This document shows, one piece after another, positions 1 through 21,645 of a DNA stretch of 64,000 nt. Source of the stretch: an uncultured Coriobacteriia bacterium (GTDB lineage Bacteria; Actinomycetota; Coriobacteriia; Anaerosomatales; JAAXUF01); NCBI GenBank assembly GCA_963803785.1, contig CAWDNM010000008.1, forward strand, positions 35,411-99,410, in the 5' to 3' direction. The notes below the pieces were generated by a model. It was given only the letters and a program-made list of their open reading frames with translations. It made no database searches and was not told the origin of the DNA. Each line of letters opens with the position of its first letter. Position 1 is the first letter of the stretch. Both the position numbers and the translations under genes were made by a program.

Positions 1-10
1 GAGCCGCGCG

Positions 11-1121
11 ATGAAGCCTGCCGTCGTCAAGGTCAACGCGACCAGTGCGGCCTACGAGGTGCTGATCGGCCCCGAGCTGCTCACGGACGTGGGCGAGCTT
101 GTTCGCCTTGTCGCGCCTGGCGCGCGCAACGTCGCGATCATCACCGACAACAACGTGGGCGACCTGTTCGGCCTTACAGTCGAGCGCAAGCTGATCGAGG
201 CGGGCATCGACGTGCACCCGCTCTCGGTCGCGGCAGGCGAGTCGTCGAAGAGCTGGGCAGTGGCGGGTGAGGTGCTCGAGGCGCTTGCCGAACTCAGGCT
301 CGATCGCGACGACCTGGTGCTCGCGCTCGGGGGCGGCGTCATCGGTGATCTCGCCGGGTTCGTGGCCGCGACCTACCTGCGGGGAATCAGCTTCGTCCAG
401 GTGCCGACGACGCTCCTTGCGCAGGTCGACTCGTCGGTCGGCGGCAAGACCGGTGTCGACCTTCGGGCGGGCAAGAACCTGGCTGGAGCGTTCAAGCAGC
501 CTTTGCTTGTGATCGCCGACACATCGACGCTGCAGCCTGCTTCCTGCGCCGGAATGGGCCAGCGGGTTGGCCGAAATCGCCAAAAGCGCAGTTGTAGACG
601 GTGAAGAGTTCTTCGGCTGGATGGAAGAGAACGCGGCGGCGCTCGTTGCGCGAGATGAGGCTGCCGTAAATGAGGCGATCAAGCGGTCCGTCGGGTTCAA
701 GTCGAGGGTAGTAACTGCCGATGAGACAGAAGCAGGACCACGCGAGTGCCTGAACTATGGTCACACGTTCGGTCATGCGCTTGAAAAGGTCTCTGGATAC
801 GGGTCCATTTCCCACGGAGTTGCCGTTGCTGAAGGCATGCGATTCGCTGCCAGACTCTCGGTTGAGGCAGGCTCCGCGAGCATGGAGCTGGTAGGGAGAC
901 AGGATAGGCTGCTGGACGCACTGGGGTTGCCGGCTTTGGAGACATGGCTTGAACCGCGTGCGCTCCATGAGGCAATGCACTCGGACAAGAAGGCGCGAGG
1001 TGGGAGTGTGCGATTCGTCTTGCTCGACGCTGCTGGTGTGTGGAGGTGCGAGCCGGTCGCCGACGCGATGATCGGAGAGCATGTCAAGGCTTGGGCTGAT
1101 TCAAAGAGCCAGGGATGCCCA
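11..1121 (+). CDS. aroB: 3-dehydroquinate synthase; reading frame switches from ORF 11..604 to ORF 567..1583 around nt 545-600 (apparent indel)
   Basis: N-terminal ORF 11..604 ([10 protein letters not shown]...[11 protein letters not shown]...[10 protein letters not shown]) and continuation in frame of 567..1583 ([11 protein letters not shown]...) carry the DHQ synthase motifs. Combined length is ~360 aa. The 3' end runs in frame into aroQ with no stop. Confidence 0.8.
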
Positions 1122-1583
1122 ATGAGGCGGATTCTGGTGCTCAACGGGCCCAATCTCAATCTCCTTGGCAGTCGCGAACCGGCTGTGTACGGATCTGTCG
1201 GTCTGGCAGCGATCGCGGAAGAGACGGGTGCGTTGGCAAGCGAGTTGGGTGTGGAGGTCGTGTTCGAGCAGAGTAACCACGAAGGTGAGCTGATCGACGT
1301 GCTGCATGCGGCACAGGGTACGTACGACGCGGTGGTCTTCAATCCGGGGGCCTGTACGCACTATTCGTACGCGCTGCGTGACGCTGTTGCCGCGATCGGC
1401 TTGCCGGTCGTCGAGGTGCATCTCTCGAACATCGCGGCACGGGAGAGCTTCCGGCACGAGAGCGTCATCGCGCCCGCGTGTGTCGGCCAGATCAGCGGAT
1501 TTGGAGCGAGACTCATACCTACTGGGTCTGCGCGCGGCCGTGGCGGCGTGCGGCTGACCCAGATGGCGAACGGTAGAGAATGA
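1122..1583 (+). CDS. aroQ: type II 3-dehydroquinate dehydratase
   Basis: ATG at 1122 begins [24 protein letters not shown]...[13 protein letters not shown], the signature of type II dehydroquinase. Ends TGA at 1583. Size is ~153 aa. Confidence 0.9.
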
Positions 1584-1633
1584 AACCGGCGCGACATGCG
1601 CCGAGGACCAGAGGCGGCATAGGGAGTGGCACG

Positions 1634-3439
1634 ATGGTCGGGCTGAAGCGGTTGGTGCGAAGTGATTCGGGATTCACCGTAGTCGAGCTGGTGGTCGCTG
1701 CGGCGATTCTTTTCGTGGTTTCCACGGGCATCATGGGCGTGCTGGCCTACGCGAGTACGTCCAACGCATCCGACGCCAAGCACCAGATGGGCCTTGAGCT
1801 TGCCAACCAGCGCATGGAGCAGGCTCGCAACATGGACTACGACAAACTCGGGACCACCAACAACTACCCGATCGGCGACCATCATCACTCCCGAGACGGT
1901 CGTCGTTGTCCACGCCCGCTGGCAACTCGCACTTACGTAGTTGAGACCGAGGTCGACTACTCGGAGGACGTCACCGACCCCTCCTTGGGCGCCTCGAAGG
2001 ACATCCGCATCACCGTCTCGTGGACGACGCCCCGGCCCGGGAGCGTGACGGTCGAGTCGAACATCGCCGGCGCGCCGGCGGTCACGAACGCGGGCGCCGT
2101 GGAGATCCTGGTCCAAGACTCCGATACGAGCGACCCCGTCGCCGGAGCGGTAATCACCATCAAGCCCGCGGGAGGGTTTTCGGCTTCGAAGACGACCGGC
2201 TCCGATGGCTACGCCAGGTGGAAGCGGGTCGCGACCGGATCCATCATCATCACGGGCACCTGCTCGAACGCACTACCTCGACATGAGCCCTGTCGCGGCC
2301 GCCGTCATCAACAACAAGGAGACTCTCTCGGCGACCGTTCAGGGGGAGCGCGCCAGCAGTGGCACAATCCACGTCGTCGACCAGAATGGCAACGACCTTC
2401 CTGGCGTGGCAGTGACGATCAAGGGCCCCCTGGGATACGCCAACTGGAGTTGTCCGACCGCTGCAGGAGGCACCCTCGTATCCGATGCTAACGGCAACGT
2501 GGTCTTCCCTCTGCTGCGCAAAGGCAACCATACACGTCACCGGCGTACTGAGCGGCTACGCTGTTCAGGCCTCGCCGCCCGACCTGGCCGTGATCGCCGG
2601 AGGCGGCTCGTACACGAGCGCACTCAGGATGGACCAGAGGACCACCCTCAAGGTCACCGTGCTCGATGCGAGCAACAACCCGGTTCCGGGTGCGACCGTG
2701 ACCGCGACGGGTCCGAGCGCTGTCACGTTCGCCTCGGTCACCGACGCCAACGGCGTGGCAACCAGCAACGACATGGGCGCAATCGGTACCGGCAAGACGT
2801 ACTCCGTCACGGCCACGAAGGCCGGCTACGTCACCGGCCGGTGGTTCGGTCACGATGGACCAGTTCTCACAGGGGACCATCACGCTGGCACTGACGCCGC
2901 AACCGCCGACGACCATCAAGGTCACGGTTCGGGACGCCAGCAACAATCCGATTCCCGGCGTGACGCTGTCTGCGACAGGCCCAAGCGGCGTCACGTTCGC
3001 ATCGGTCACCGATGCAAGTGGCCAGGCGACGAGCAACGACATGGGCGCGATCGGCACCAGCAAGACGTACACGGTGACCGCCGCGAAGAGCGGCTGGACG
3101 CTCGAACACCGGCACGGTGACGCTGAGCCAGTACACGCAGGGCGCGGTGACGATCACGTTGTCCTCGGCGCCGGTGAACGGCACCTTGCTGGCCACGTAC
3201 ACGTCGAGCCTCACCTCATCGAAGACCATCTACGTCTACGCGAGCAACGTGGCCAACGGAACATCCATCGCGTCGAAGGTCGTCACGAGCGGCAGCCCGA
3301 CTGCGTCGTTCAGCCTTCCGGCAGGGACGTACTGGGTCAGCAGGCGAACCCCGTACGGCTCGTCCGGCGCACGTACCGGTGTCAGGTCGTCATCACGTCC
3401 GGCAACACCACGTCCGTCAACATCACGAGCAGCAACTAG
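1634..3439 (+). CDS. type IV pilin-like protein with class III (prepilin) signal, followed by >=4 tandem CarboxypepD_reg-like/Ig-like beta-sandwich repeats; fragmented over >=5 frames
   Basis: ATG 1634 after AGGGAG gives MVGLKRLVRSDSG|FTVVELVVAAAILFVVSTG. This is leader-G/F(+1)...E(+5), the prepilin peptidase cleavage and methylation motif. Downstream ORF fragments (2205..2894, 2485..3120, 2855..3439, 3117..) share the repeating unit TxKVTVxDASNNPxPGxTxxATGPSxVTFASVTDAxGxATSNDMGAIGTxKTYxVTAxKxGx. Confidence 0.6.
2641..3140 (+). repeat. two tandem ~235-250 nt coding repeat units (~80% nt identity) encoding duplicated beta-sandwich domains of the pilin-like protein
   Basis: The unit accaccctcaaggtcaccgtgctcgatgcgagcaacaacccggttccgggtgcgaccgtgacc...ggctacgtcaccggc is followed by accatcaaggtcacggttcgggacgccagcaacaatccgattcccggcgtgacgctgtct...ggctggacg. 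Protein-level units are near-identical. Confidence 0.7.
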
Positions 3440-3446
3440 GACAGCC

Positions 3447-4124
3447 ATGCCTTCAATCCGAGACGATAGCGGTATGACCCTCACAGAGCTCCTCGTCGTG
3501 ACCGTGCTGATCTCTGTCATCATCGCGGCGTCGTACTTCATGTTCACTGCCGCGCAGTCCATGAACGATATCGCCATGGCGCGCAGCAGTGCCACGGATG
3601 ACGCGCAGTCGGCGATCGACAAGATGACTCGTGAGTTCCGGCAGACGCAGGTCGACCGCACACCTGATGAGAACCCGGTCGGCGGCGTGTTCAAGCTTGC
3701 GAACGCGAACGAAGCGATCTTCATGAGCGACCTGAACGACGATCAGGTTCCTGAGCTGGTCCGCTACTACGTCGAGGGCGGGTCGCTGAAGCGCACGGTC
3801 GCGCCCGCACCAACACGCAGGCGCCGTTCACGTTCGGCGCGTACGCTGCGCCGACGATCCTCGTCAAGAAGCTCGGCACGTCTGCACAACCCGATCTTCT
3901 GCTATCACACCGAACGTGCGATCCGACCACCGTGCTGTGCGGCACGGACAGAGCACTGGCTTCGTCAAGGTGCCCACGAGCGCGGACCCATACAACACGA
4001 CGCCCGAAGATCGCCATGGTCGGAATCACTGCTGAACGTTCCCGGCACGTCGGGCTCGAAGACCGTCACGGTGACCACGCGGGCGCTCGTGCGGATGCGG
4101 ACGGTGGACAATGAAGTGGAGTAG
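3447..4124 (+). CDS. minor pilin / pseudopilin (GspJ/PilW-like) with prepilin signal; 2 apparent frameshifts in the 3' half
   Basis: ATG 3447 gives MPSIRDDSG|MTLTELLVVTVLISVIIAASYF (G-1, E+5). The middle section (~3800-4050) reads APTNTQAPFTFGAYAAPTILVKK... in another frame. The terminal ...GTSGSKTVTVTTRALVRMRTVDNEVE* returns to the 3117 frame and stops at 4124. Confidence 0.55.
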   Translation: MPSIRDDSGMTLTELLVVTVLISVIIAASYFMFTAAQSMNDIAMARSSATDDAQSAIDKMTREFRQTQVDRTPDENPVGGVFKLANANEAIFMSDLNDDQVPELVRYYVEGGSLKRTVAPAPTRRRRSRSARTLRRRSSSRSSARLHNPIFCYHTERAIRPPCCAARTEHWLRQGAHERGPIQHDARRSPWSESLLNVPGTSGSKTVTVTTRALVRMRTVDNEVE

Positions 4125-4165
4125 AGAGATGGACGAGAAGAGCTGCAGCCAATCGGCTCAGGCGC

Positions 4166-5516
4166 ATGCTGGCCAGCGACTCGGGCATGGCGCTCGCGAT
4201 CGTGATGCTCATGTCCGCGATCCTGTTCATACTCGCGACGACCGTGCTCATGCTGGTCGAGTATCGCGGGAGCCGGACCGAATCGGTCACCAAGCGCAAT
4301 CAGGCGATGCACATCGCCGATGCGGGCATCAACCAGTACATGTATCAGTTGAGCCAGAAGTACGACTTCTACCAGACGCACGGGGTCCTCGGACCCGTGC
4401 AGATGGATGATGGGGCACTACACGGTCACACCCAGCCTGACGCCGTCCGGGACGCTGCAGCTCACTTCGGTCGGGACGCTCAAGGACGGCTACTCGCGGA
4501 CAGTCAAGGCGACTGTCACCTTCCCGGGCTGGAACAAGTTCATCGTCTTGGTCGACGAGGGTCCGTACAGCATCGGTGCCGGCGCGACGTTCTACGGCGA
4601 CATCCACTGCAACGGTGGCATCAGCAACTCCGGAGTCGTCACGGGCAAGGCGACGGCCGGCCCAGGCAAGACATGCACGTGGAGCACGTCTCGAAGGCAG
4701 TCAACTATCCGGGCGGCGCTTGGAACGACCAGCCGACGGTCAACTTCGCGCAGCTGACGAATGACCTCGCCACGATGAAGGTCACGGCCCAGGCGGCCGG
4801 TGCGTACTACCCGCTGTCCGGCGCCCAGGGCTACAACGTCGTCCTCAACGGGCCCCAGGCGACGATCTACAAGGTCACGGACGTCGTCCACCAAGCCGTC
4901 GATCGCGACGACGACTGACGCCGTACGGCACGCTCACGCAGGTACTCTGGTCGGCACGGCGGCCATCCCGTCCGACGGCGTATTCTTCTTCGACGACAAC
5001 GTGTGGGTCACGGGCAACTACTCGGCCGAAGGTCACCATTGCGACGAGCAAGAGCGTCTGTGCCCGGGCAACCTGGTGCCGACCGTCGCGGGCTCGACCG
5101 CCACCTGCGGGCTCGTGGCGCGAGGCGACATCCTCTTCCCGTACTGGTACGAGATCGATGCCCGACGAACCAGATCGTGCAGGCCGCGCTGCTGTCTCAG
5201 ACGGGTGGCGTCGGTCCGTGACGGAACCCCGACGACCTCCGGCGGGCTGACATCCGCAGAAGTGGACGTGGACGAAGACCTCGAACACTCCGCCCCGACC
5301 GGCACGTGGGTCTGGAAGAGCAGCAACTACGTGCCGCCGCTCAAGGACTCGGTCACCATCAAGGGCGCGCGCGCGATGAAGCGGATGCTCGGTTTCTCGA
5401 CGGGCTACAACGTCCGCAACTTCGACAAGGACCCGGTGCTTGCGGCCAACCCGCCGCCCCTGTACCCGAAGCTCCCCGGCAAGAACCTCGGAGTGAGCAC
5501 GTGGGCCGAGTACTAG
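4166..5516 (+). CDS. PilX-like type IV pilus assembly/minor pilin protein (~450 aa) with N-terminal PilX_N-type hydrophobic segment; >=5 apparent frameshifts
   Basis: MLASDSG|MALAIVMLMSAILFILATTVLMLV matches the PilX N-terminal pattern. Fragments 4407..4757, 4166-frame (VEHVSKAVNYPGGAWNDQ...), 4800..5516 (…GTWVWKSSNYVPPLKDSVTIKG...STWAEY*) join into one long secreted protein. Stop at 5516. Confidence 0.5.
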
Positions 5517-5580
5517 GAGCCCGACTGTGAGCCAAGGCGTAGAATCCCTTCGAGGCACGTACCCTCGGAGGGATTCTGAT

Positions 5581-6677
5581 TTGAGTGCCACGAACCTGAG
5601 ACTCGCAGCGATTCGCGCGCAGCTGGCCGGACGCGGCGTGCGACGCCTGGTCGTCCGCGACGTCGCCAACGTGACGTACCTGAGCGCCTTCGATGACGTC
5701 TGGGACGACGAGCCGTACTCGCTGCTGCTACGTCACGCCGTCCGACGCGGTCGTGCTCACCGACAGCCGCTACCGGGAGTCGGCCGAGCTCGCTGCGAGC
5801 GGCACGCCGTGGCGGGTGATCGTGTGCGAGGGCGACCCCTGGGTCGCGGCACTGGCGCTGGCGGTCGAGGCCGACGTGACTCGCGCGTGGCGGTCGAGTC
5901 GTCAGCGCCCTACGGCGTCGTCGAGAAGGCGCGCTCGGGGTTCTCGGGAGAGATCGTGCCGATCGACGGACTGGGTCGAGGGACTTCGGGCCGTCAAGGA
6001 CGCCGCGGAGATCGCTCGGATCGTCTCGGCGCAGGCGATCACCGACGACGGCTTCGACCACATCCTCGGGTTCATCTCGCCAGGGCATGACTGAGACGCA
6101 GATCGCGCTCGAGCTGGAGTTCTACATGCGACGCACGGCTCGGAGGGCGTCGCGTTCGCTCCGATCGTCGCGAGCGGTCCGAACTCGGCGCGTCCGCACG
6201 CGCACCCGGGCTCGAGGCAGGTGCAGCGGGGCGACTTCCTGAAGATGGACTTCGGTGCGCGGGTCGGCGGCTACTGCTCGGACATGACGCGGACGGTGGT
6301 CGATCGGCACGGCGAGCGACGCGGCACCGCGAGATCTACGAGACGGTGCTGGCCGCGAACCTCGCCGGCATCGAGGCGGTCGGCCGGGACTGCCGGGCAA
6401 GGAGGTCGATGCTGCTGCGCGCGCGGTCATCGAGGCGCGCGGCTTCGGCGAGCACTTCAGGCACGGACTCGGCCACGGGGTCGGGCTCGAGGTGCACGAG
6501 CTGCCCGGACTCGGTGCGCGCAGCGAGCCGGAGCTCGCGATCGGCAACGTGGTGACCATCGAGCCGGGCATCTATGTCCCCGGGTTCGGCGGTGTTAGAA
6601 TCGAGGACTTAGTGGTGGTCGAGGAGGCAGGGGCACGCGTGCTCACCCGCTCGACCAAGGAACTCATCGAGTTGTAG
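5581..6677 (+). CDS. pepQ: Xaa-Pro aminopeptidase / M24 family peptidase; >=4 apparent frameshifts
   Basis: TTG 5581 after GGAGGG. The creatinase-N-like start is LSATNLRLAAIRAQLAGRGV..LVVRDVANVTYLSAF. M24 core motifs span several frames (DFGARVGGYCSDMTRT, HGLGHGVGLEVHELP, VVTIEPGIYVPGFGGVRIEDLVVV). Position after aroB-aroQ and before efp matches actinobacterial synteny. Confidence 0.8.
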
Positions 6678-6723
6678 CCGCCGCCTCGAGGCCGAGGCGC
6701 GACTGTGGAGAAGGAGAACGGCT

Positions 6724-7285
6724 GTGCCAGTCACTACTGCCCAGTTCAAGACCGGTATGTGCATCGTCCACGACAGCAAGCGCTGGTTGATCATCGACTT
6801 CCAGCACGTCAAGCCCGGCAAGGGCGGTGCGTTCGTGCGCACCAAGCTCAAGGAGCTGCAGTCCGGCCGCGTGGTCGAGTACACGTTCCGTGCGGGCGAG
6901 AAGTTCGACGACGTGCATCTCCAGAACCAGAAGATGCAGTATCTCTACAACGACGGCGACACCTACTACTTCATGGACAACACGTCCTACGAGCAGATCG
7001 AGCTCGGCGCAGGACTTCGTCGGCGAGTCTGCCAAGTGGCTCAAGGAGAACGACGAGGTCGAGGTCATGACCGCCGACGGCGAGTACCTCGGCGTCGAGC
7101 CGCCGATGTTCGTCGAGCTCGAGGTCATCGAGACCGACCCGGGCTTCAAGGGCGACACCGTCCAGGGCGGCACGAAGCCCGCCACGCTCGAGACCGGCGC
7201 GGTGGTGCAGGTCCCGATGTTCATCAACAACGGCGAGAAGCTTCGGATCGACACGCGCGACGGACGCTACATCACGCGCGTCTAG
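6724..7285 (+). CDS. efp: elongation factor P; one apparent frameshift near 7010-7030
   Basis: GTG 6724 after AAGGAGAA gives [45 protein letters not shown]. The C-terminal half in ORF 6827..7285 reads ...[26 protein letters not shown]. Confidence 0.9.
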
Positions 7286-7310
7286 CTGCGGAGCACAGAC
7301 TGACTTTCGC

Positions 7311-7347
7311 GAGAAGCCCGGCCAGCTGGTCGGGCTTCTCTCGTTCC
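7311..7347 (+). terminator. intrinsic terminator-like hairpin after efp
   Basis: gagaagcccg-gccagctggt-cgggcttctc forms a 10-bp perfect stem, followed by tcgttcc. An AT-rich TATATACT box lies downstream, ahead of the next gene. Confidence 0.5.
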
Positions 7348-7464
7348 GAGTGCCGCCTGCCCGCGCCTCGTATATACTTATCGTTCTACACGTGACCCGA
7401 CCGGCGCGCCTCGTTCCTGGAGTCTCGCGCCGGTGCTCGTTGACTGCACCCGCAAGGAGGGGCG

Positions 7465-9319
7465 ATGCGACCGGTCCGTATCACCGACACGACGCTGCGC
7501 GACGCGCACCAGTCGCTGTGGGCGACGCGCATGGAGGTCGGCGACATGCTGCCGATCCTGCCCAAGATGGACTCCGTCGGCTACTGGTCGCTCGAGGTCT
7601 GGGGCGGCGCGACGTTCGACTCGTGCCTGCGCTTCATGGACGAGAACCCGTGGGAGCGGCTGCGCACCATCAAGCAGCACTGTCCGCGCACGCCGCTGCA
7701 GATGCTGCTTCGCGGACAGAACCTCGTCGGCTACCACCACTACTCCGATGAGATCGTCACCCGGTTCGTCCACGCGAGCAAGCGCAACGGCATCGACGTC
7801 TTCCGCGTCTTCGACGCGCTCAACGACATCCGCAACGTCGTCGACGTCCGCCGAGGCCGTCAAGGAGTGCGGCGGGCTGTTCGAGGGCGCCATCTCCTAC
7901 ACGGTGAGCCCGGTGCACACGCTCGACGCCTACCTCGAGTACGCGCAGCAGCTCAAGGAGATCGGCGCCGACACCATCTGCATCAAGGACATGGCCGGCA
8001 TGCTCACGCCGTTCCGCACCGAGAAGATGGTCCGCGCGCTCAAGAACGAGATCGGCCTGCCGGTTCACGTGCACTGCCACTACATCGGCGGTATGGCGCC
8101 CATGAACTACGTCAAGGCCGCCGAGGCGGGCGCCGACATCGTCGACACCGCGGTCGTCGCGCTCGCCTTCGGCAACAGCCAGCCGGCGGTCGAGACGATC
8201 GTCGCTGCGCTCATGGAGTCGCCCTACGACACCGGCCTCGACCTCGACCTGCTCTTCGAGATCGCCGAGTACTGGGAGGACGTCCGCAAGAAGAAGAACC
8301 TCAAGCGCGGCATCACGACGCTGCTGTCGATGGAGGTCTTCAGCCACCAGGTTCCCGGCGGCATGATGAGCAACCTCGTCAGCCAGCTCGAGGTCCAGAA
8401 GGCCAAGGACCGGCTGCCCGACGTGCTCGCCGAGATTCCCAAGGTGCGCGCCGAGGTCGGCTATCCGCCGCTCGTCACGCCGCTCTCGCAGATCGTCGGC
8501 ACGCAGGCGGTCATCAACGTCCTGACCGGCAAGCGCTGGAACGATCGTGCCCGAGGAGATGAAGGACTACATCCGCGGCTACTACGGCAAGGCGCCGGGC
8601 CCGATGGACAAGGACATCGTCGCCAAGGTCCTCGGCGACGACCGAGCCGCTGGGCGCCGACATCCGGCCCGGCTCGCTCGTCACCACGACCTACGCCGAG
8701 GTCGAAGCCGAGATCGGCGACTTGGCCAAGAGCGAGGAGGACGTGCTCATGTACGCCCTCTTCCCGAACGAGGCCCGTACCTACCTGACCGCCCACCAGG
8801 AAGGCGCCGAGAAGGCCGTCTTCCTCATGAGTGAAGAGCTGCACACCGTCAAGGAGGACGATTCCGTGGACGTCAACCAGATTCGCGAGCTCATCAAGAT
8901 CGTCGAGGCCTCAGACATCTCCGAGATCGTCATCGAAGAGGGCGAGACTCGAGGTCTCCGTGCGCAAGGGCGGCTTCGCATCAGCCGCACCTGTGGCGGC
9001 GGCCGCCACCGCTGCTCCGGCAGCCGACGCTGCGCCTGCCGCCCCGGCGGCCCCGGCTGCCGGCGAGCGGCCCGCGACCTGGAAGACGGTCACCGCGCCG
9101 ATGGTCGGCACCTTCTACGAGGCGGCATCGCCCGGTTCTGCGGCGTTCGTGGCCGTGGGCGACACGTTCGCCGAGGGCGCGACGCTGTGCATCCTCGAGG
9201 CCATGAAGCTCATGAACGAGATCGTCGCCGAGGAAGCGGGCGTCGTGCGCGAGATCGCCGTCAAGAACGGCGACGCTGTCGAGTACGGCACCGTGCTCTT
9301 CTACTACGAGCCCGCCTAA
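7465..9319 (+). CDS. biotin-dependent carboxyltransferase subunit: HMGL-like (5S-type) carboxyltransferase domain + Ala/Pro-rich linker + C-terminal biotinyl (BCCP) domain (OadA/PycB-like); >=3 apparent frameshifts
   Basis: ATG 7465 gives [17 protein letters not shown]...GGATFD...; the second frame carries ...[12 protein letters not shown]...[29 protein letters not shown]; the PYC_OADA-like segment [17 protein letters not shown] is present. The linker is [27 protein letters not shown] and the biotinylation motif is EAMKLMNEI, ending YYEPA* at 9319. CT and BCCP parts are continuous in frame 8722 (no stop). Confidence 0.7.
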
Positions 9320-9340: not shown

Positions 9341-10700
9341 TTGTTCGATCGCATCCTCATCGCCAACCGTGGCGAAGTCGCACTGCGCGTCATCCGCGCT
9401 GCCAAGGAGATGGGCGTCGAGACCGTCGCCGTCTACTCGGAGGCCGACCGCGACTCGCTTCACGCGCGCATGGCCGACCACGCCGTCTGCATCGGACCGG
9501 CCGCCTCGGCGCTGTCGTACCTGAGCATGCCCAACATCATCTCGGCCGCGCTGCAGACCGGCGCGCAGGCGATTCACCCCGGCTACGGCTTCCTCGCTGA
9601 GAACTCCGCGTTCGCTCGCGCCTGTGCTGACTCCGGTCTCGTCTTCATCGGCCCGTCGCCTGACGCGATCGACCGCATGGGCGACAAGTCGGTCGCTCGA
9701 GAGACGATGATGGCTGCCGGCGTGCCCACCGTTCCTGGCTCCGACGGTGCCGTCGAGAGCTACGAGGAGGCGCTGCGCTTCGCCGAGCAGGTCGGCTTCC
9801 CGGTGCTCATCAAGGCGAGCGCGGGTGGTGGCGGCAAGGGCATGCGCGTCGCCAAGTCCGCCGACGAGCTGCACGCCAACCTCACGGCCGCCAAGACCGA
9901 GGCCGCTGCGGCGTTCGGCAACGACACCGTCTACATCGAGAAGTACCTGCTGCGCCCGCGCCACGTCGAGATGCAGGTGCTCGCCGACACGCACGGCAAC
10001 GCGGTGCACCTCTTCGAGCGCGACTGCTCGATCCAGCGCCGCCACCAGAAGCTCGTCGAGGAGGCCCCCAGCCCCGCGATGACGCCGGAGCTGCGTGCCG
10101 CGATGGGCGAGGCCGCCATGAAGGCGGTTCGTGCCGTCGACTACGTCAACGCCGGCACCGTCGAGTTCCTGCTCGACACCGACGGCAAGTTCTACTTCAT
10201 GGAGATGAACACCCGCGTCCAGGTCGAGCACCCCATCTCCGAGCAGATCACCGGCGTCGACATCATCAAGGAGCAGATCCGCATCGCTTCCGGTGAGCCG
10301 ATGCGCCACACGACGCAGGACAAGATCGAGTGCCGCGGCCACGCGATCGAGTTCCGCATCAACGCCGAGGACCCGGCGCACAACTTCCGTCCGCACCCCG
10401 GCACCATCTCGGTGTTCAACCCGCCGGGCGGCTTCGGCGTGCGCATCGACACCCACGTGTACTCCGGCTACTCGGTGCCGCCGAACTACGATTCGCTGCT
10501 CGGAAAGCTCATCGTGTGGGGCGAGACACGCGACGAGGCCGTCGCCCGAGCACGCCGTGCGCTCGACGAGTTCATCGTGATCGGCATCCCGACCACGATC
10601 CCGTTCCACCAGGCGGTCGTCGAGAATGCGACGTTCCAGAGTGGCGACGTCTATACTGACTTCGTCGAGACCGAGATGAGCGGCGTTCTAAGTCCTGCGC
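9341..10700 (+). CDS. accC: biotin carboxylase (ATP-grasp), apparently intact; 3' end approximate (no in-frame stop before next gene)
   Basis: TTG 9341 after GGAGG gives MFDRILIANRGEVALRVIRAAKEMGVETVAVYSEADRDSLH...GGGGKGMRV...EMNTRVQVEHPISE.... This is a full-length biotin carboxylase. The ORF reads through to 10864, likely from a lost stop. Confidence 0.85.
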
Positions 10701-10720
10701 CGCGGAGGAGAGCGACACGT

Positions 10721-11074
10721 ATGTCTGACGAACTTCGCCTCGAGGGTCTGGGCGTAGCGCCCGGAGTGCTCGACACCATCGTGACCTTTGCCGCCGAGGG
10801 CGTCGAAGGCGTTGCCGCCGTGGGCGCTCCGGCCTCGCGGGCCTCGTGCAGAAGGGTGCCCTGACCAAGGGCTGCCTCACGCGCGGTCGACGTCTGCGTC
10901 GCCGAGGATGGCGCTCTGAGCGCCACGATCCACCTTCAGGTCCTCTACGGCCACAAGCTCAAGGACGTCGCCAACAACGTGCAGGCGGCTGTCGCCGACG
11001 CAGTGTCGAGCCAGGTCGGCGTGAACGTCGCCGCGGTCGATGTCTACGTCGATGGCATCGTCTTCGCCGAGTAG
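10721..11074 (+). CDS. Asp23/Gls24 (YloU/YqhY-like) family protein; 1-2 apparent frameshifts
   Basis: ATG 10721 after GGAGGAG gives MSDELRLEGLGVAPGVLDTIVTFAAEGVEGVAAVG. An alternate frame gives ...DGALSATIHLQVLYGHKLKDVANNVQAAVADAVSSQVGVNVAAVDVYVDGIVFAE*, stopping at 11074. The accC-asp23-nusB order is the classic Gram-positive arrangement. Confidence 0.6.
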
Positions 11075-11081
11075 GACGCCG

Positions 11082-11514
11082 ATGCTCGAACGCAGCAGGG
11101 CGCGCCGTCTGGCGATGCAGATTCTCTACCAGCGCGACATCACCGGCGAGAGCGTGGCGGTGATTCTCGGCACGAAGGCATACTCGGTCGAGGACGGCGA
11201 GCCCGACGACTTCTGCCGGCAGCTCGTCACCGGCGTCGAGGAGCATCTGCCCGAGATCGACGAGACGCATCGGGACGGTCTCGGAGAACTGGTCTGTGTC
11301 GCGCATGCCGCTCGTGGACCGCAACATTCTGCGGCTCGCGACGTACGAGGTGCTCTTCGTCGACGACGTGCCGCCGAGTGTCGCCATCAACGAGGCGGTC
11401 GAACTCGCCAAGGTATTCGGCGGCGAGGACTCCTCGAAGTTCGTGAACGGGGTTCTCGGCAAGATCGCCGAGAGGCATGCGGCCGAAGATGAGAAGGAAC
11501 CAGCCGATGAGTGA
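11082..11514 (+). CDS. nusB: transcription antitermination factor NusB; one apparent frameshift near 11290
   Basis: ATG 11082 gives [23 protein letters not shown].... The C-terminal half in ORF 11296..11514 reads ...[51 protein letters not shown]. Confidence 0.8.
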
Positions 11515-11860
11515 CGAGTCGTACAGCTTCTCGACCGCGCGAGTGCGGCTCGAGGAGATCGTGACCCAGGTCCGCAAGAAGGACACGTCGCTGGAGAAGA
11601 GCCTCGACCTGCTCGAAGAGGGCGTGCGGCTCGCCAACGCGTGCACCGAGCTGATCGACCACGCCGACTGGACGGTCGGCGGCGTGGGTGAACCGGCCGA
11701 GGGCGGAGGACGGCGGCGCGACACGGACTGTCGACGACGGGCGCGCCGACGCCGATGCAGGCGACGAGGAGACGATGCCGGACGACGCGCGCGCGAGGCG
11801 CCCGAAGTGCGACGGCGTTGTCGCGACGACGCGTCCGATGCGCCCGACGACGAGGCGTAG
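11507..11860 (+). CDS. xseB: exodeoxyribonuclease VII small subunit-like; C-terminal ~35 codons are Arg-rich and probably off-frame
   Basis: ATG 11507 gives [54 protein letters not shown], which matches the XseB helical-hairpin pattern (LEEIV..L...SLE.SL.L.EEGV.L...C). It overlaps the nusB stop by 8 nt. Confidence 0.5.
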
Positions 11861-11971
11861 CAAACCGCTGTTCGCGGGTACGTTCCGCGTTGTCCCGCAG
11901 CCTGTGGGCGCAGTATGCTCGACATGGTTCATGCAATCCGCACCGGACTCGATGCGTGACTGACGGAAGAG

Positions 11972-13905
11972 ATGGGGCTCGTGCCCGAACGAATTCTCGA
12001 CTCCATACAAGCGCCGTGCGACATCAAGGGCCTGACGCAGGCCGAGCTCGCGCAGCTGGCCGACGAGATCCGCACCGAACTCGTGACCACGGTCTCGAAG
12101 ACGGGCGGTCACTTGGCACCCAACCTCGGCGCGGTCGAGCTGACGCTCGGCATCCACCGCGCGCTCGACTGCCCTCGCGACCGCATCATCTTCGACGTCG
12201 GGCACCAGTCCTACGTCCACAAGCTCCTCACCGGACGTCTCGAGCGCTTCTCGACGCTGCGGCAGTACGGCGGCGTGTGCGGCTTCCCCAAGCGCAGCGA
12301 GAGCCCGTACGACTCCTTCGACACCGGTCACGCGTCGGACTCGCTGTCGGTCGCACTCGGGCTCGCTCGTGCGCGCGAGGCGCAGGGCGAGCGACGAGAC
12401 GGTGCGTCGTCGTCATCGGCGACGGGTCGATGACGGGCGGGATGGCGTTCGAGGCGCTCAACCACATCGGGCATCTCGGCACGCCGCTGGTGATCGTGCT
12501 CAACGACAACGAGATGTCGATCTCCGAGAACGTCGGCGCGCTGGCGAGCTATCTGGCCCGTGTGCGTCTGGACCCCCGCTACAACCGGCTGCGCGACGGC
12601 GTCGAGACCAAGCTCGCGACCACCAACGTGGGGCGCGTCGATGGTCGAGTTCGGCGAGGCCGTGAAGGGCTCGTTCAAGCAGCTGGTCGTGCCGGGCATG
12701 CTCTTCGAGGAGCTCGGGCTGAAGTACGTCGGCCCCATCGACGGCCACGACATCGCGCAGGTGCAGGAAGCGGTCGAGCGAGCCAAGACCTCCGACGGCC
12801 CGGTCATCATCCACGCGGTGACGCGCAAGGGCGCCGGCTACGTGCACGCCGAGGATTCGCCGGACGCGTTCCACGGCATCGCGCCGTTCTCGATCGAGAC
12901 GGGCAAGGCGCACAGCAAGCCCGGTGCGCCCATCAGCTTCACCGAGGCGTTCTCGCAGGCTCTGGTCGCCGAGGCGGCCGACAACGACCGCATCGTCGCG
13001 ATCACGGCGGCGATGCCGTCCGGCACCGGGCTCGACCTGCTTCGCCGAGACCTACCCCGAGCGCTTCTACGACGTCGGCATCGCCGAGGAGCACGCCGTC
13101 GGCATGGCCGCCGGCCTCGCGCTCGGCGGCATGCTCCCGGTCGTCGCGGTGTACTCGACGTTCGTGCAGCGGGCCTACGACCAGATGATCATGGACGTCG
13201 CGCTGCAGAACCTGCACGTCGTGTTCTGCCTCGACCGCGCGGGACTCGTGGGCGAGGACGGCCCGACGCACCACGGCGTGTTCGATCTCACCTACCTGCG
13301 CTCGATCCCGAACATGATGCTGCTCGCACCGGCCGACGAGGCCGAGCTCGCCGAAGCGCTGCACACCGCGCTCGTCGCCGATGGACCGGTCGCGATCCGC
13401 TACCCGCGCGGTGCCGGCAGCGGCGTTGAGATGCCCGCCTCGCCCGCCACGTGGGATGCGGGCCGCGCGCAGGTTCGTCGCACCGGCAGCGATGTCGCGC
13501 TGCTCGCGGTCGGCCGCATGGTCGGCACGGCCGAGGAAGCCGCCGCAGATGCTCGAGGCCAAGGGCGTCTCGGCGAGTGTCGTCAACGCGCGCTGGGTCA
13601 AGCCGCTCGACTTCGAGACCGTCTCGTGGGCGGCGACCAACCACCGGCTCGTCGTGACCATCGAGGAGAACACCGGCATGGGTGGGTTCGGCGCGGCGGT
13701 GTGCGAGGCGCTCGCCGACATGGACCTCCAGGTGCCGATCCTGCGACTCGCGGTGCCCGACTGCTTCGTGCACGCACGGCGCCATGAGCAAGCTCCTCTC
13801 GGACGTCGGGCTGACTCCGGAGGGCGTGAGCACGGCGGTTCTCGGCAGGCTCGAGGACGTGCCGGCCGCCGGCTCGTCCGGCTCGCTCTCGGAAGGGGAG
13901 ACGAG
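11972..13905 (+). CDS. dxs: 1-deoxy-D-xylulose-5-phosphate synthase; >=6 apparent frameshifts, 3' end approximate
   Basis: Fragments found in order: 11972..12433 ([13 protein letters not shown]...[13 protein letters not shown]), 11755-frame ([19 protein letters not shown]), 12560..13429, 12924..13787 ([29 protein letters not shown]...), 13381..13908, 13682..13939. Together they give a ~640 aa DXS. Confidence 0.8.
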
Positions 13906-17318: not shown

Positions 17319-18442
17319 ATGCGCCACCAGGGCATCGCACGCATCGACAAACGGACCAAGGACCTCACCAAGCGCCTCGGTCCTGAGGACGTCGCCATCA
17401 TCGACCATGTCGACATGGATCGGGTGAGCGCCGAGGGGCTCATCGAGACCGGCGTCGAGGTCGTCGTCAATGCCGCGCCGTCGATCTCCGGCGCGTACCC
17501 CAACGTCGGTCCGCTCCTGCTGGCGCGTGCGGGTGTGACGCTCATCGACGACGCTGGACCAGCGGTCTTCGAGCGCCTGCGCGAGGGCGATGCGGTCGAG
17601 GTCGTCGGCGATGACATCATCAAGGACGGCCAGCTCATCGCCCACGGCACGCGGCTGTCGACCCAAGACATCGAGGCGAAGATGGAGGCCGCCAAGGCCG
17701 GCCTCGGCGACCAGCTCGACCGGTTCGCGCGCAACACGATCGAGTACCTCGAGCGCGAGCAGTCGCTCCTCACCGACGACATGTGGGTACCCAAGACGAA
17801 GGTGTCGCTGCACGGGCGCCACGTGCTCGTGGTCGTGCGCGGCTACGACTTCAAGGCCGACCTCTCAGGCGCTCAGGCCCTACATCCGAGAGATGCGTCC
17901 GGTTCTGGTCGGCGTCGACGGCGGGGCCGACGCGATCGCGGAGGCGGGCTTCACTCCCGACATCATCGTCGGCGACATGGACTCCGTGAGCGATAGCGTC
18001 CTGAGAGGCCGGCGCGCAGCTCATCGTCCACGCGTACGCCGACGGTCGCGCGCCCGGTATGGAGCGGCTCGATTCGCTCGGTCTTGAAGGCTCGACGTGG
18101 CCGCTTGCCGCGACGAGCGAGGACCTCGCGCTCCTGCTCGCGTGGGAGTCAGGCGCCGACCTCATCGTCGCGGTGGGCACGCACGCCAACCTCGTCGAGT
18201 ACCTCGACAAGGGCCGCAAGGGTATGGCGTCGACCTTCCTCGTGCGACTCAAGGTCGGACCGAAGCTCGTGGACGCCAAGGGCGTGAACAAGCTCTACCG
18301 GGCGTCGATCGGCCCGACGCAGCTGCTCCCGATCGTGCTGGCAGCCCTCGCGGTCGTGACCGCGGTACTGCTCATCTCGCCGTTCGCCCGCTCGTACCTT
18401 GAGCTGATCGTGTTGCGTGTCCAGACCTGGTTCGGGGCGTAG
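17319..18442 (+). CDS. steA: SteA-like cytokinetic-ring associated protein (thiamine pyrophosphokinase-like catalytic domain + C-terminal TM); 2 apparent frameshifts
   Basis: ATG 17319 gives MRHQGIARIDKRTKDLTKRLGPEDVAIIDHVDMDRVSAEGLIETGVEVVVNAAPSISG...; the gene ends with a TM helix ...LLPIVLAALAVVTAVLLISPF... and stops at 18442. The recN-steA-steB order is the actinobacterial arrangement. Confidence 0.7.
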
Positions 18443-18471
18443 ACGTCCCCTTCAGTAGGAGCTGTTCGCCG

Positions 18472-19248
18472 ATGTACAACATCCGATACCACATCGCCTC
18501 TCTCGTCGCCGTGTTCCTGGCGCTCGCGCTCGGTCTCGTGCTCGGAGGCCTCGTGGTCCAGCAGGGCAGCTTCTCCAAGCAGCAGAAGGCGCTTGTCGGG
18601 AGCCTCCAGCGGGACTTCAAGAAGCTCAAGAGCGAGAACACCCGTCTGAAGGCCGAGATCCGCGTGCAGAGCGGCTTCTCCGAGCAGATGACAAGCGCAT
18701 GGGCGAAGGATCGCCTCGCAGGTCACTCCGTCGTGATCCTCACCAGCGGCGCCGAGAAGGAAGGCGGCGCAGCTGCGGTCGAGGCGGTGAAGGCCGCCGG
18801 GGGAACCCCCGTCGTCGTCAAGCTCGTCAACCGCGAGTTCGGGGTGAACAACGACAAGGTCGTCGAGGTCATACGGTCGGTTGTCGAAACCTCAGGCGAC
18901 GTGCGAAGCTGCGGTGGTCGCGAGCTTGACCGCCGAGTGGACGACGCGCCGATACACCACGGCCACTCACGGATGCGCTGATCAAGGTCGGCGCCATCAG
19001 AGGTGACGGGAATGGAACCGTCAGTCGCAGCCACCGACCTTGTGACCACGCCGCCTTCGCGAAGCAGCCCGATGAGCGTCGCGCTCGACATCGCTCGCGC
19101 GTACGCGGACGCGGGCTACTACGCGATCGGAGCCCAGACACCCACGAGCTCCGACCGGCGTGGCGCCCGCCGCCGTCGCGCGGCGGCTCTCGGCATTCGA
19201 CACGCTCGGGAACTCAGCCGGGACGCTTCACGCTCATCGCGCTCCTGA
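18472..19248 (+). CDS. steB: SteB/MctB-like membrane protein; 2 apparent frameshifts, extent uncertain
   Basis: ATG 18472 after AGGAG gives MYNIRYHIASLVAVFLALALGLVLGGLVVQQG (N-terminal TM), then a coiled segment KLKSENTRLKAEIRVQ. Downstream fragments reach ~19248. Confidence 0.5.
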
Positions 19249-19325
19249 GCGGGGGAGAGCAAGGCTACTTCGGTCTGAACCGAGAACGCCGTGAAGCCCT
19301 ATCCCGGCGGTGCCGTAGGAGCCGG

Positions 19326-20036
19326 CTAGCGCCAGTCGGTCTCGGCTGCGCGCACCGGCGCCGGCTGCCGAGACAGCCGCATCAGTGCGATGGCCACGTG
19401 CACGAACTGCTTGCCCCGGTGCACGAAGCCCGCGACGTCTCGACCGGTTGCAGCGTGCGCCATCGTCGTCGGGACCTCGGTCAGCCGGAACCCCGCGCGC
19501 AGCGCGCGAATCGTGAGTCCCACCTCGACGCCGTATCCCGCCATGAACGGCCGCACCGTCGCGAGACACTCGCGAGTGAGCGCGCGCTGGCCCGAGAGGG
19601 GCGCGGTCGCATCGAACGCGCCGCCGTAGCGGGCGATGCCCCAGCGGGCGAGGTTCATGACCAGCCCGAAACCCGCCTTGCCCGGCCGGCTGCGGAAACG
19701 TCGCGATCGTCATGTCAGCCTCGCCTGCGAGTAGCGGGGCCAGGAGCAGTTCGGCCTGGCTCGCGGTCGTCGCCGAGGTCGCCGTCGAGCAGAAGCACGA
19801 TGTCGGCGTTCTCGATGCGCTTCGCGCCCGCCTCGAGCGCGCCGCCCTTGCCCGCGTTGCCGAACATGCGCACGACCTTGGCCCCGGCCGCTCGGCGAGC
19901 ATCGCGGTGTCGTCCTCGCTGTCGTCGTCGACCACGACGACGCGCGTCACTCCTTCGATGCGAGCGCGCAGCTTCGGACGGTGGCAGCGATGTCGTCGGC
20001 TTCGTTGTGAGCGGGAATGAGGACGGCGATGTCCAC
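19326..20036 (-). CDS. family 2 glycosyltransferase (DPM1/GT2-like); 2 apparent frameshifts
   Basis: On the minus strand, GTG at 20036 gives VDIAVLIPAHNEADDIAATV.... Fragments read ...VTRVVVVDDDSEDDTAMLAERAGAKVVRMFGNAGKGGALEAGA...ADIVLLLDGDLGDD.... The C-terminal ORF 19326..19658 reads ...RYGGAFDATAPLSGQRALTRECL.... Confidence 0.6.
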
Positions 20037-20039
20037 GCG

Positions 20040-21645
20040 CTAGACCTTCCGTGGGAAGCGGCGACCGATGACGCGCTCGAACGAGCGTGATCGCCATCGG
20101 CGACCTCGGCGACACCGAAGAGCCGGCCGAGACCGAATGCGACCGCGAGCCCGGCGGCTCCGCCGGCAGCGATCTGGATGAGCGCGCCGACCACGCGGCC
20201 GGAGAGCGGGTCGAGCACCTGCGTGACGCCCCAAGCCACGGCGCCGCCGATGACCGATGCGATGGTCATGCGAGCGAATGTCCAGGCGACGCCGCGCGCA
20301 TCGTAGCCCCCGATGCGGCGCCGTAGCAGGACAGCGAGCGTGATCGAGACGCACAGGTAGAAGGTGACGTCGGCGATGGGCATGCCGTTGATGCCGATGC
20401 CGTGCCACGAGCCGATGCCCGTGGAGAGCAGCCAGTACAGCGCGATCTGAACGCCGCCGGTCAGCGCGAGGTTGACCCACATGGGCGTGCGCGTGTCCTT
20501 CAGCGAGTAGAAGGCGCGCAGCAGGAACATGGTGAGCGCGTAGAAGATCAGGCCACCGGCCCACCACCGCAGCGCGCTCGCCACGAGCGGGACGTCCTCG
20601 GCCGTGAACTCGCCGACTCGGTACAGCGTCACGAGCGGCACCGCGAGCGCCACCATGACCGCCGAGGTCGGCAGCATGAGCACGCCGGTCGAGCGCAAGC
20701 CCCTCGCGAACGTCGTCCTTGAAGGCCATCGTTGTCCTTGCGGCCTGCAGCGTCGGACAGCTCGGTGAAGACGGCGGTGGCCAGTGCGACGGCAAGGATG
20801 CCGTAGGGGAGCTGGTAGAACACCCAGGCATAGGTGAGGACCGAGACGCCGTTCGCGGAGACGGCGAGCGCCGAGGCGTTGCGGAACGAGACGGCCACGA
20901 GGTTGGTGACGACGTAGATGACGGTGGGGACGGCGAGCGTCGAGCATGCGGCGCACGGCAGGGTCGTGCAGCCCGAGTCCGCCCGAGTACCGCCATCCGG
21001 TCTTGAGCACCGCAGGGACCTGCACGGCGAACATCACGAAGACGGCGAGCGTGGTGCCCACGGCGAGGACGACCGGGGCCGGGCCCGGAGGTGAGCGACG
21101 CCCCGGTGACCTTGCCGCCGAGCGCGACGAAGGCGAGCATCGCGCCGATGGCGACCACGTTGTTGAATACCGGGCCGATCGCGGGCCAGAAGTACTGCCG
21201 TCGCGAGTTCAGCAGCCCGGAGATGATCGAGCCTGCGCCGTAGAGCACGACCTGGATGGCGAAGAAGCGGAAGAAGAACGTGGCGGCCGGCACGACCTCG
21301 GACGCCTGCTCGGGCGACATGCGAAACGTCTGCGTCCAGATGAACGGTTCAGGGAAGAGCGTACCGATCAGCGCGAGCGCACCCAGGCAGAGCAGCGGCG
21401 AGGTTGAACACGTGGCTCGTGAACCGCCACGCCTCGTCTTCGCCCTTGCTCTCGCGGAGCTCCATGAACATCGGGATGAACAGCGACGAGATGATGCCGC
21501 CGGCGACGAGCTCGAAGATCATGTTGGGGATGTTGTTCGCGACGCTGTACGCCGACATGAGGCCGGTCGCACCCAGCGCGAACGCCGTGGCCCAGATGCG
21601 CAGGAAGCCTGTGATGCGCGACAGCATGGTGAGTGTCGACATCAT
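20040..21645 (-). CDS. murJ: lipid II flippase MurJ (MviN); >=3 apparent frameshifts
   Basis: Minus-strand fragments: 21349..21834 (MMSTLTMLSRITGFLRIWATAFALGATGLMSAYSVANNIPNMIFELVAGG), 20040..21320 (...FFRFFAIQVVLYGAGSIISGLLNSRRQYFWPAIGPVFNNVV...), 19715..21061 (...LLRAFYSLKDTRTPMWVNL...). ATG is at 21645. Confidence 0.75.

Follow-up and report, generated by a model that had tools for sequence, protein, structure and literature searches.

Which proteins are encoded between aroQ and pepQ in this genome, and do they belong to a pilus? The interval lies within a 64,000-nucleotide stretch of DNA (the window) and had been described in an initial annotation as an inserted cluster of pilin-like genes. 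With a probability of about 0.78, positions 1634–5516 encode three minor pilins of a monoderm (clostridial-type) type IVa pilus (T4aP) from an uncultured Coriobacteriia-like actinobacterium. This reading is based on pilin signatures, domain architecture, predicted folds and the organization of the locus in relatives. The three consecutive genes, all on the + strand, carry class III leaders as first proposed: MVGLKRLVRSDSG followed by FTVVEL at 1634, MPSIRDDSG followed by MTLTEL at 3447, and MLASDSG followed by MALAIV at 4166. The predicted structures show the pilin fold, a long α1 helix on an antiparallel β-sheet.

Flanking genes and reconstruction of the reading frames

The gene for type II 3-dehydroquinase, aroQ (1122–1583, + strand), was translated from 1122 and its stop codon ends at 1583. 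Orthologues in related loci (L001, L004 and L006) carry DHquinase_II (PF01220). aroQ is the final aro gene between the pilus machinery genes, which lie upstream beyond the window, and the pilin trio. The ATG of gene 1 follows at 1634, leaving the 50-nt spacer (1584–1633, + strand) noted originally, with a ribosome-binding site, GGAG, 9 nt before the start codon. A terminator scan of the spacer found no + strand terminator-like site. Its sole hairpin with a T-run is on the – strand. The tight spacing and the missing + strand terminator make the suggested co-transcription of the trio with the aro genes plausible. The next gene after the trio is pepQ (Xaa-Pro dipeptidase; 5581–6677, + strand), mapped from its LSATNLRL start and ORF fragments and frameshifted within the window too; its orthologues carry PF01321/PF00557. 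It is followed by efp at 6724 and further genes. The window begins within aroB, so that the pilus machinery genes of this genome are out of view, and no prepilin peptidase or assembly ATPase gene was found in the 64 kb.

None of the three trio genes is an intact open reading frame in the window. Single-base insertions change the frame of gene 1 near 1877, 1905, 1930, 2264, 2534, 2833, 3100 and 3372/3381, and genes 2 and 3 are likewise garbled by indels. The ~600-aa product of gene 1 is therefore a reconstruction. Two orthologues with unbroken frames validate it, P0001 with 598 aa at 89% identity and P0003 with 597 aa; intact orthologues of ~598 aa show 84–89% identity. In tblastn, P0001 covered 1634–3371 in successive frames. 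The proposed length thus stands through the 597–598-aa orthologues, while no uninterrupted frame of that size exists in the window. The deposited protein P0072 of this assembly is a garbled translation.

Architecture of the three pilins

Gene 1 (1634–3439, + strand), delimited by tblastn with P0001, by its homologues and by an AF2 model (pLDDT 88), encodes a modular minor pilin of about 600 aa after frameshift correction. A class III signal peptide and a pilin module precede five Ig-like β-sandwich domains, D1 to D5, and the structure prediction recovered all five. In the pilin module (1634–2080, + strand), cleavage is predicted before FTVVE, and the model has a 50-residue α1 helix (residues 16–65) and strands at 87–145 in a four-stranded sheet. 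Gene 1 scores 20.9 bits against Pfam N_methyl (PF07963; cut-off 21.2), a model that matches 16 of 21 relatives (best E 1.6e-6); TIGR02532 was not reported at E ≤ 0.01. Among these 21 relatives, down to about 21% identity, Glu+5 is invariant (21/21) and G–1/F+1 is found in at least 90%. Profile searches of PDB sequences gave non-significant pilin matches. One relative carries the JGI name PilV.

D1 and D2 (2084–2630, + strand; model strands 152–318) are divergent CarboxypepD_reg/Big_1-like β-sandwiches with sub-threshold Pfam matches of 22.3 and 17.9–21.1 bits and 21–32% identity to D3/D4. D3 (from 2641) and D4 (from 2909) are close tandem repeats (2641–3170, + strand) of the pattern TTxKVTVxDASNNPxPG...SNDMGAIG...KxGY, and both pass the cut-off for PF13620 CarboxypepD_reg (32.9 and 33.0 bits; cut-off 32.3). 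The C-terminal β-sandwich D5 (3180–3436, + strand; model strands 514–594) gave no relevant match when its fragment was scanned against Pfam. The description of gene 1 as a large pilin with CarboxypepD_reg/Ig-like domains is supported. At least four repeats of one form had been reported, but close similarity (67% identity) is confined to D3 and D4; identities for D1, D2 and D5 range over 21–42%. The close repeat occurs twice in the 597–599-aa forms and three times in orthologues of 666–681 aa.

A Foldseek search with the gene 1 model matched the tandem Ig/CnaB domains of Gram-positive adhesins, among them TIE, PitA, BcpA, SpaC and SdrD, and domains of sortase pilins and MSCRAMMs were the top matches (E 1e-14 to 1e-7, 10–15% identity). 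Like sortase pilins and MSCRAMM stalks (BcpA, SpaA, PitA, SdrD B-repeats, B. anthracis TIE), gene 1 has tandem CnaB/prealbumin-like β-sandwiches. Unlike them, it has a class III rather than a Sec-type N-terminus and no C-terminal anchor. Six gene 1 orthologues, ending in ...ITSSN or similar, have no LPXTG sorting signal at their C-termini, and an assignment as a sortase-dependent pilin or LPXTG protein was rejected.

By joining a pilin module to a domain whose signature is not T4P-specific (PF13620), gene 1 is a real, recognizable example of the known "modular pilin" design. The initial annotation knew of no pilin of this architecture, yet a catalogue of modular pilins ranks IPR012902-PF13620 third in frequency, with 66 proteins, and lists a double-PF13620 form once (Raynaud et al. 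2021, PMC8179133). Experiments have so far addressed none of the PF13620-class proteins. As gene 1 falls just under the N_methyl cut-off, such proteins would be missed by that survey. Gene 1 resembles Streptococcus sanguinis PilB/PilC and the modular pilins in its pilin module plus added domain, here PF13620, its monoderm host and its T4aP-type machinery. It differs in having five tandem β-sandwiches, two of which reach the Pfam threshold, instead of one functional module, and its Ig-like domains are unlike the vWA and lectin modules of the S. sanguinis pilins.

Gene 2 (3447–4124, + strand) encodes a prepilin of roughly 222 aa with the leader MPSIRDDSG and a predicted cleavage before MTLTE; its stretch 3810–4030 is garbled by indels. 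It exceeds the N_methyl cut-off (25.2 bits), 14 of 15 relatives match this model, and an orthologue scores 21.8 bits against TIGR02532 (cut-off 16.3). Glu+5 (E14) is invariant in the alignment of relatives. The match to TIGR01711 gspJ is weak (18.3 bits vs 64.85) and confined to the N-terminus. Among relatives of genes 2 and 3, a leader ending in DSG followed by M, I or L is kept.

Gene 3 (4129–5516, + strand) encodes a ComZ/GspK-like pilin of roughly 450 aa with a leader ending in DSG before MALAIV and, in the predicted structure, an inserted β-solenoid. The ATG at 4129 is a more likely start than the alternative at 4166; from it the leader has 19 aa, like that of the orthologues. Position +5 is Val/Ile in place of Glu, a known exception that is common to GspK-type minor pilins. 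Neither N_methyl motif model (PF07963, TIGR02532) matched, so that of the three genes only gene 2 passes the N_methyl check. PilX_N (PF14341) was found in 1 of 20 relatives only (E 0.03), no T2SSK (PF03934) match was found, and a precomputed Pfam domain is recorded for none of 22 homologues; gene 3 fits no Pfam or NCBIfam model. The earlier label "PilX-like" thus lacks HMM support and draws on the predicted structure, in which a large domain sits in, or is attached to, the pilin sheet and similarity to GspK/ComZ is seen. The top structural neighbor is a DNA-binding competence pilin. A tip location has been argued for ComZ of Thermus thermophilus (PDB 6QVI; Salleh et al. 2019, PMC6561018), and solenoid-bearing PilX proteins of cyanobacteria were proposed as a tip plug (bioRxiv 10.64898/2026.02.12.705559). 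Gene 3 differs from these in its host, a monoderm actinobacterium, and shares only 15% sequence identity. Its family comprises 3039 representative clusters at E ≤ 1e-3 in a representative-cluster library.

The order of the trio, a large protein followed by J-like and K-like members, agrees with the I-J-K and PilV-W-X order. The core minor-pilin tip complexes GspI-GspJ-GspK and PilV-PilW-PilX (for example PDB 3CI0 and 5VTM) differ from it: the trio locus lacks a GspH/FimU-like fourth member and PilY1, and the first trio member, at 600 aa, compares with about 120 aa there. On the trio, the sequence HMMs for GspI, GspJ, GspK and PilX_N stayed below threshold. Position, size and weak N-terminal matches tentatively suggest gene 1 as the GspI/PilV-like and gene 2 as the GspJ/PilW-like member.

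Organization of the locus in relatives

In five relatives (L001, L002, L003, L004 and L006), down to 38% identity, the gene order is pilB-pilC-pilin-pilin-pilD-pilM-pilN-pilO-x-aroC-aroK-aroB-aroQ-[trio]-pepQ-efp. The cluster is therefore the distal end of a conserved locus and not an insertion between aroQ and pepQ. The prepilin peptidase and the assembly ATPase, together with the other pil genes and aroK that the initial annotation proposed to look for, are all present there. Domains T2SSE (pilB), T2SSF (pilC) and Peptidase_A24 (pilD) were identified, PilM_2 and PilO scored 175 and 53.5 bits, and PilN was recognized weakly (19 bits vs 22.8). PilB, PilC, PilD, PilM, PilN, PilO and putative major pilins thus occur together in five loci, as in a type IVa system. 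In the roughly 22-kb stretches examined, neither a secretin (pilQ) nor, in the stretches covered, a PilT retraction ATPase was seen. The trio also stays together away from the aro genes, in L005 (twice), L015 and L017.

The two small pilins encoded upstream (112–120 aa) are ComGC/GspG/PilA-like. Their best NCBIfam match is ComGC at 50 bits (cut-off 75), and ComGC and ComGE matches at the locus stay below threshold. These two pilins are likely the major subunits, which makes gene 1 a minor pilin; the earlier idea of a pilus built from the gene 1 protein is not borne out.

The C. perfringens T4aP locus reads pilA1-pilD-pilB2-pilC2-pilA2-pilM-pilN-pilO-CPE2280...CPE2277 (PMC6958937). The machinery order is the same in our relatives, with several pilin-like genes after pilO. 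Unlike in clostridial loci, the minor pilins are separated from pilO-x by aroC-aroK-aroB-aroQ. Shikimate-pathway genes that directly follow pilM/N/O in the same orientation recall the pilMNOPQ-aroK-aroB linkage of Proteobacteria (Weaver et al. 2020, PMC7545093; A. baylyi, PMC5542475), from which the present loci differ in that no pilQ was seen in the stretches examined. Since the minor pilins follow the aro genes, the latter are embedded in the pilus locus instead of flanking it.

Alternative explanations and proposed function

The repeated interruption of each trio gene would be consistent with a decaying pseudogene remnant whose pilins no longer function in the organism. This is highly improbable. 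Nearly all insertions in gene 1 are +1; they lie outside homopolymers and are spaced roughly 30–300 bp apart, and the essential genes aroB, pepQ and efp are hit by the same type at similar density. Frameshifts are also present in aroB and gene 3 of the related assembly L001. Corrected segments keep 94–100% protein identity to an orthologue that is about 90% identical at the DNA level, and this contrast indicates purifying selection. Judged by this pattern, the frameshifts are sequencing or assembly errors. Hardly more credible is a membrane-anchored surface adhesin that never enters a pilus, with the N-terminal helix of gene 1 as a signal anchor and pilin resemblance confined to the N-terminus. 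The N_methyl score just below threshold and the matches of the extracellular part to surface adhesins and sortase pilins would fit. Nevertheless, the conservation of Glu+5 and G–1/F+1 across distant relatives, the modeled α1 helix plus sheet module and the missing LPXTG signal argue against it. Moreover, gene 1 always adjoins two more pilin-like genes, and in closer relatives pilD is in the same locus.

An unlikely but weightier alternative is a competence pilus, in which the trio would work in natural transformation instead of adhesion and the ComZ-like gene 3 protein would be the tip DNA receptor, as in Thermus thermophilus. The ComGC match of the small pilins and the mildly basic character of the mature gene 3 protein (pI 8.4) and of the Ig region (pI 8.9) favor it. 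Com pili of monoderms have minimal machinery without PilM/N/O, whereas all three are present at the relatives' locus, and a run of five Ig-like domains is a typical feature of adhesin stalks. A monoderm Com pilus with the minimal comGA-GG operon was rejected on the PilM_2 and PilO scores. As a T4aP is capable of both jobs, competence overlaps with the minor-pilin reading and does not exclude it.

The best reading of the trio is a complex of the GspI/J/K kind that primes the pilus or sits at its tip and in which the first subunit bears an Ig-like adhesion stalk; the members are probably minor subunits at the pilus tip. PilD, encoded upstream in relatives, would cleave all three prepilins behind the glycine that ends the leader. 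Their pilin modules would then join through their hydrophobic α1 helices into a GspI/GspJ/GspK-like heterotrimer, which would prime the filament on the PilC/PilM/PilN/PilO platform and finish at the tip. The gene 3 protein, with its bulky β-solenoid and no Glu+5, may cap the complex. The gene 1 pilin module would anchor the chain of five CarboxypepD_reg/CnaB-like β-sandwiches, which would extend outward from the tip to act as stalk or adhesin and most likely attach to surfaces or polysaccharide. The fiber proper would consist of the two small upstream pilins. With a DNA-binding competence pilin as the top structural neighbor of gene 3, adhesion is not the sole option.

On the practical side, the assembly is riddled with insertion errors that affect at least one deposited protein. 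Defining the gene 3 family as ComZ-like solenoid pilins would improve the annotation of its 3039 clusters. Gene 1 is a specific example of the modular pilins of PF13620 type, catalogued yet uncharacterized, with repeat number varying between close relatives. For Coriobacteriia-like Actinomycetota, the relatives' loci put on record a complete T4aP locus that includes a modular, putatively tip-located pilin; only Tad-type pili have been studied experimentally in this phylum. More tentatively, the trio may be a widespread, hitherto undescribed unit that travels together, with or without the aro genes and sometimes duplicated, and gives T4aP a length-adjustable tip; its parts may be an Ig-stalk pilin, a J-like pilin and a ComZ-like solenoid pilin. 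If so, the T4aP of uncultured Actinomycetota would possess a long-reach tip, with two or three close repeats, that serves in adhesion or in DNA capture; in one lineage its transcription would be tied firmly to that of the essential shikimate operon, and no T4aP tip complex would have been described in Actinobacteria before it.

The pilin trio in the window and the pilus locus in relatives

In the window, aroQ (1122–1583) is followed after a 50-nt spacer by gene 1 (1634–3439), with GGAG placed 9 nt before its ATG, then by gene 2 (3447–4124), gene 3 (4129 or 4166 to 5516) and pepQ (from about 5581). The aroQ–gene 1 interval holds no terminator-like site on the + strand, and Rfam gave no match anywhere in the window. 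The window begins within aroB, and tblastn detected none of pilB, pilC, pilD, pilM, pilN or pilO in it. Positions 9300–64000 look like ordinary chromosome (accC, dxs, pyrG, xerD, rsmH, PBP, murE/murF, ftsZ, pstC/A/B, a YggS-like gene and proC were recognised by N-terminal sequence), with no further pilus genes.

Orthologues of the trio were found at five related loci with 84%, 73%, 64%, 39% and 38% identity. At all five, the machinery side reads pilB(T2SSE)-pilC(T2SSF)-small pilin-small pilin-pilD(A24)-pilM-pilN-pilO-~205-aa protein-aroC-aroK-aroB-aroQ. The trio follows, as a pilin of ~500–670 aa and proteins of ~220 and ~450 aa, and then pepQ-efp-oadA-like-accC-asp23-nusB-xseB-dxs. Given this shared order, the trio in these relatives makes up the far end of a whole type IVa pilus (T4aP) locus of the clostridial type. 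The assembly genes and aroK that the initial annotation proposed to look for are thus present at the orthologous locus in five relatives, while its description of the cluster as inserted between aroQ and pepQ gives way to an arrangement conserved down to 38% identity. Judged from gene order, aro genes are embedded in the T4aP locus, in what appears to be an old and conserved arrangement. One of the related loci, L003, is labelled as an uncultured Coriobacteriia MAG, and another relative's protein, P0012, likewise comes from a Coriobacteriia MAG.

More distant relatives (L005, L015, L017) have all three genes together but no aro genes beside them, sometimes in duplicate; the trio is therefore the conserved unit. 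L005 carries two copies about 4.5 kb apart, at 10001–13807 (609/192/453 aa) and 18290–21604 (476/207/401 aa), with no aro or pil machinery genes nearby. A genome-contig search with a 10-sequence alignment returned two loci only, a degenerate DNA pattern for ANQRxEQARN returned 12, mostly short, and a protein-guided search of metagenome contigs found no relative.

The ~205-aa protein between pilO and aroC is a conserved membrane protein (L001 6022–6640, L002 6032–6649, L004 6058–6630, L006 6013–6645). Its resemblance to PilP (27.8 bits; cut-off 34.65) and to the GspC HR domain is weak, and unexpected in a lineage that is presumably monoderm and lacks a secretin. The closest relatives have aroK and aroB fused as one ORF (L001 7873–9950, L002 7739–9499), whereas the two are separate in the more distant L003, L004 and L006. 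As the frame is open at base 2 of the window, the fusion is probably present there too.

Frameshifts and sequence quality

Six-frame translation showed each gene of the trio split across all three + frames. The flanking housekeeping genes are likewise broken: aroB at 11–604 and from 567 onward, pepQ into three pieces and efp into two. Aligned with L001 (89.9% identical across 9 kb), the stretch 1580–5560 of the window shows about 30 inserted single bases, which lie outside homopolymers, as in CGGC[G]ACC and GGAC[G]CTCG. Mapped by tblastn with an intact orthologue, gene 1 runs through successive frames with junctions near 2266, 2535, 2836, 3101 and 3372 and three further compensating shifts at 1877–1930, insertions being spaced roughly 30–300 bp apart. 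After correction, its segments are 94–100% identical at the protein level to P0001, an intact orthologue of 598 aa. The frameshifts are assembly errors, neither gene decay nor recoding, and programmed frameshifting was rejected because insertions occur all over the window.

Single-base insertions run throughout positions 1–9000 and probably the whole window, and the pilin genes share them with aroB, pepQ and efp; ORF-based annotation of this error-prone contig is therefore unreliable. The NCBI/ENA protein P0072, from a contig of 111,855 bp, reproduces exactly the garbled product of the frameshifted gene 2 ORF (3447–4124), so the deposited annotation of the MAG includes corrupted proteins. L001 (ENA ERZ25039459) is also frameshifted, in aroB and gene 3 (8916–9081, 13452–13515), and for this reason its gene 3 is called as products of 346 and 120 aa.

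Three probable prepilins and their predicted modules

A search with the reconstructed 602-aa gene 1 protein recovered 40 relatives, several of them intact (597–599 aa, 81–89% identity) and others down to about 25%; JGI names one PilV and others PulG or 'prepilin-type...'. The leader of gene 1 ends in G and is followed by FTVVE. Across 21 relatives Glu+5 is invariant, with G−1/F+1 in at least 90%. Pfam N_methyl scored 20.9 bits on the window protein against a cut-off of 21.2 and matched 16 of the 21 relatives. CarboxypepD_reg was above threshold (33 bits) on D3 and D4, sub-threshold on D1 and D2 and gave no match to D5, D1–D5 being the five domains after the pilin module.

The structure prediction that had been suggested was provided by an AlphaFold2 model of P0001 (pLDDT 88.2). 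A 50-residue alpha-1 helix (residues 16–65) and a small four-stranded sheet (87–145) are predicted to form the pilin module, in addition to which the model has five beta-sandwich domains. D3 and D4 are the sole close repeat pair (67% identity); the remaining pairs share 21–42%, so that the tandem repeats initially described hold as close copies for D3/D4 and not for the other domains. Orthologues of 666–681 aa have three close repeats rather than two. TRF found no DNA-level tandem repeat underlying the protein repeats. The 3′ end of gene 1 (3394–3427) contains a 15-nt unit, CACGTCCGGCAACAC, in 2.3 copies, where the frameshifted reading is ...GNTTSVNITSSN; the unit is probably trivial.

Foldseek against the PDB matched gene 1 to the stalks of tandem CnaB/Ig domains found in sortase pilins and Gram-positive adhesins (TIE, PitA, BcpA, SpaC, SdrD; E 1e-14 to 1e-7). 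Gene 1 carries no LPXTG signal, for which reason a sortase pilin was rejected. Profile searches of PDB sequences with the gene 1 module and with gene 2 returned pilin N-termini only, non-significantly.

The gene 2 product (~222 aa; leader MPSIRDDSG, followed by MTLTE) passes N_methyl at 25.2 bits, and the same profile matches 14 of 15 relatives. Its orthologue passes TIGR02532 and shows a weak gspJ match confined to the N-terminus.

The gene 3 product (~450 aa) has a leader ending in DSG followed by MALAIV, without Glu+5. None of 22 homologues contains a Pfam domain, and PilX_N matched one of 20 relatives (E 0.03). The top structural neighbour is ComZ of Thermus thermophilus (score 16.2, 282 residues aligned), followed by ice-binding beta-solenoids (13.5–15.4), GspK (11.1), S. 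sanguinis PilA (9.3), XcpX (9.1) and Tapirins (about 8). ComZ is a DNA-binding pilin with an inserted solenoid, argued to fit at the pilus tip only (PMC6561018), and solenoid-bearing PilX proteins of cyanobacteria were recently proposed as a tip plug (bioRxiv 10.64898/2026.02.12.705559).

Proposed assembly and known systems

PilD would process all three prepilins, whose alpha-1 helices may join in an I-J-K-like complex. This complex would prime assembly and cap a fibre built of the small ComGC/GspG/PilA-like pilins encoded upstream. The gene 3 product would be the cap, and gene 1 would display its five-domain Ig-like stalk for attachment, with a repeat number that differs among relatives. Because gene 3 resembles ComZ, DNA uptake is the main rival role for the pilus; it is disfavoured by PilM/N/O at the locus in relatives and by the adhesin-like stalk of gene 1. 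Pseudopilins of a type II secretion system were rejected, given the monoderm lineage, PilM/N/O instead of GspL/M and no secretin seen in the ~22-kb stretches of the relatives' loci.

The relatives' locus is comparable to the T4aP locus of C. perfringens (PMC6958937), and its aro genes echo the pilMNOPQ-aroK-aroB linkage of Proteobacteria (PMC7545093, PMC5542475). T4aP systems were previously predicted in Actinobacteria, where Tad-type pili are the only ones studied experimentally. At the corresponding position M. tuberculosis presumably has a small membrane protein (Rv2537c-Rv2536-Rv2535c). The literature offered nothing useful on Rv2536 or on a pil-aro-efp arrangement in Gram-positives. Modular pilins, a pilin module plus an extra domain, were defined in a set of 1219 proteins, in which IPR012902-PF13620 is the third commonest architecture (66 proteins) and the form with two PF13620 domains has a single entry (Raynaud et al. 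2021, PMC8179133); a pilin joined to CarboxypepD_reg (PF13620), an architecture initially thought to be without precedent, was therefore already catalogued.

Unrecorded are a first minor pilin with a stalk of five domains, a ComZ-like third subunit in a monoderm and aro genes inside a pilus locus. The gene 3 family is large: with its alignment profile (A4), 3039 representative clusters score E ≤ 1e-3, and 172 of them reach E ≤ 1e-30. No curated Pfam or NCBIfam model covers it, and a new family could be defined for these ComZ-like solenoid pilins.
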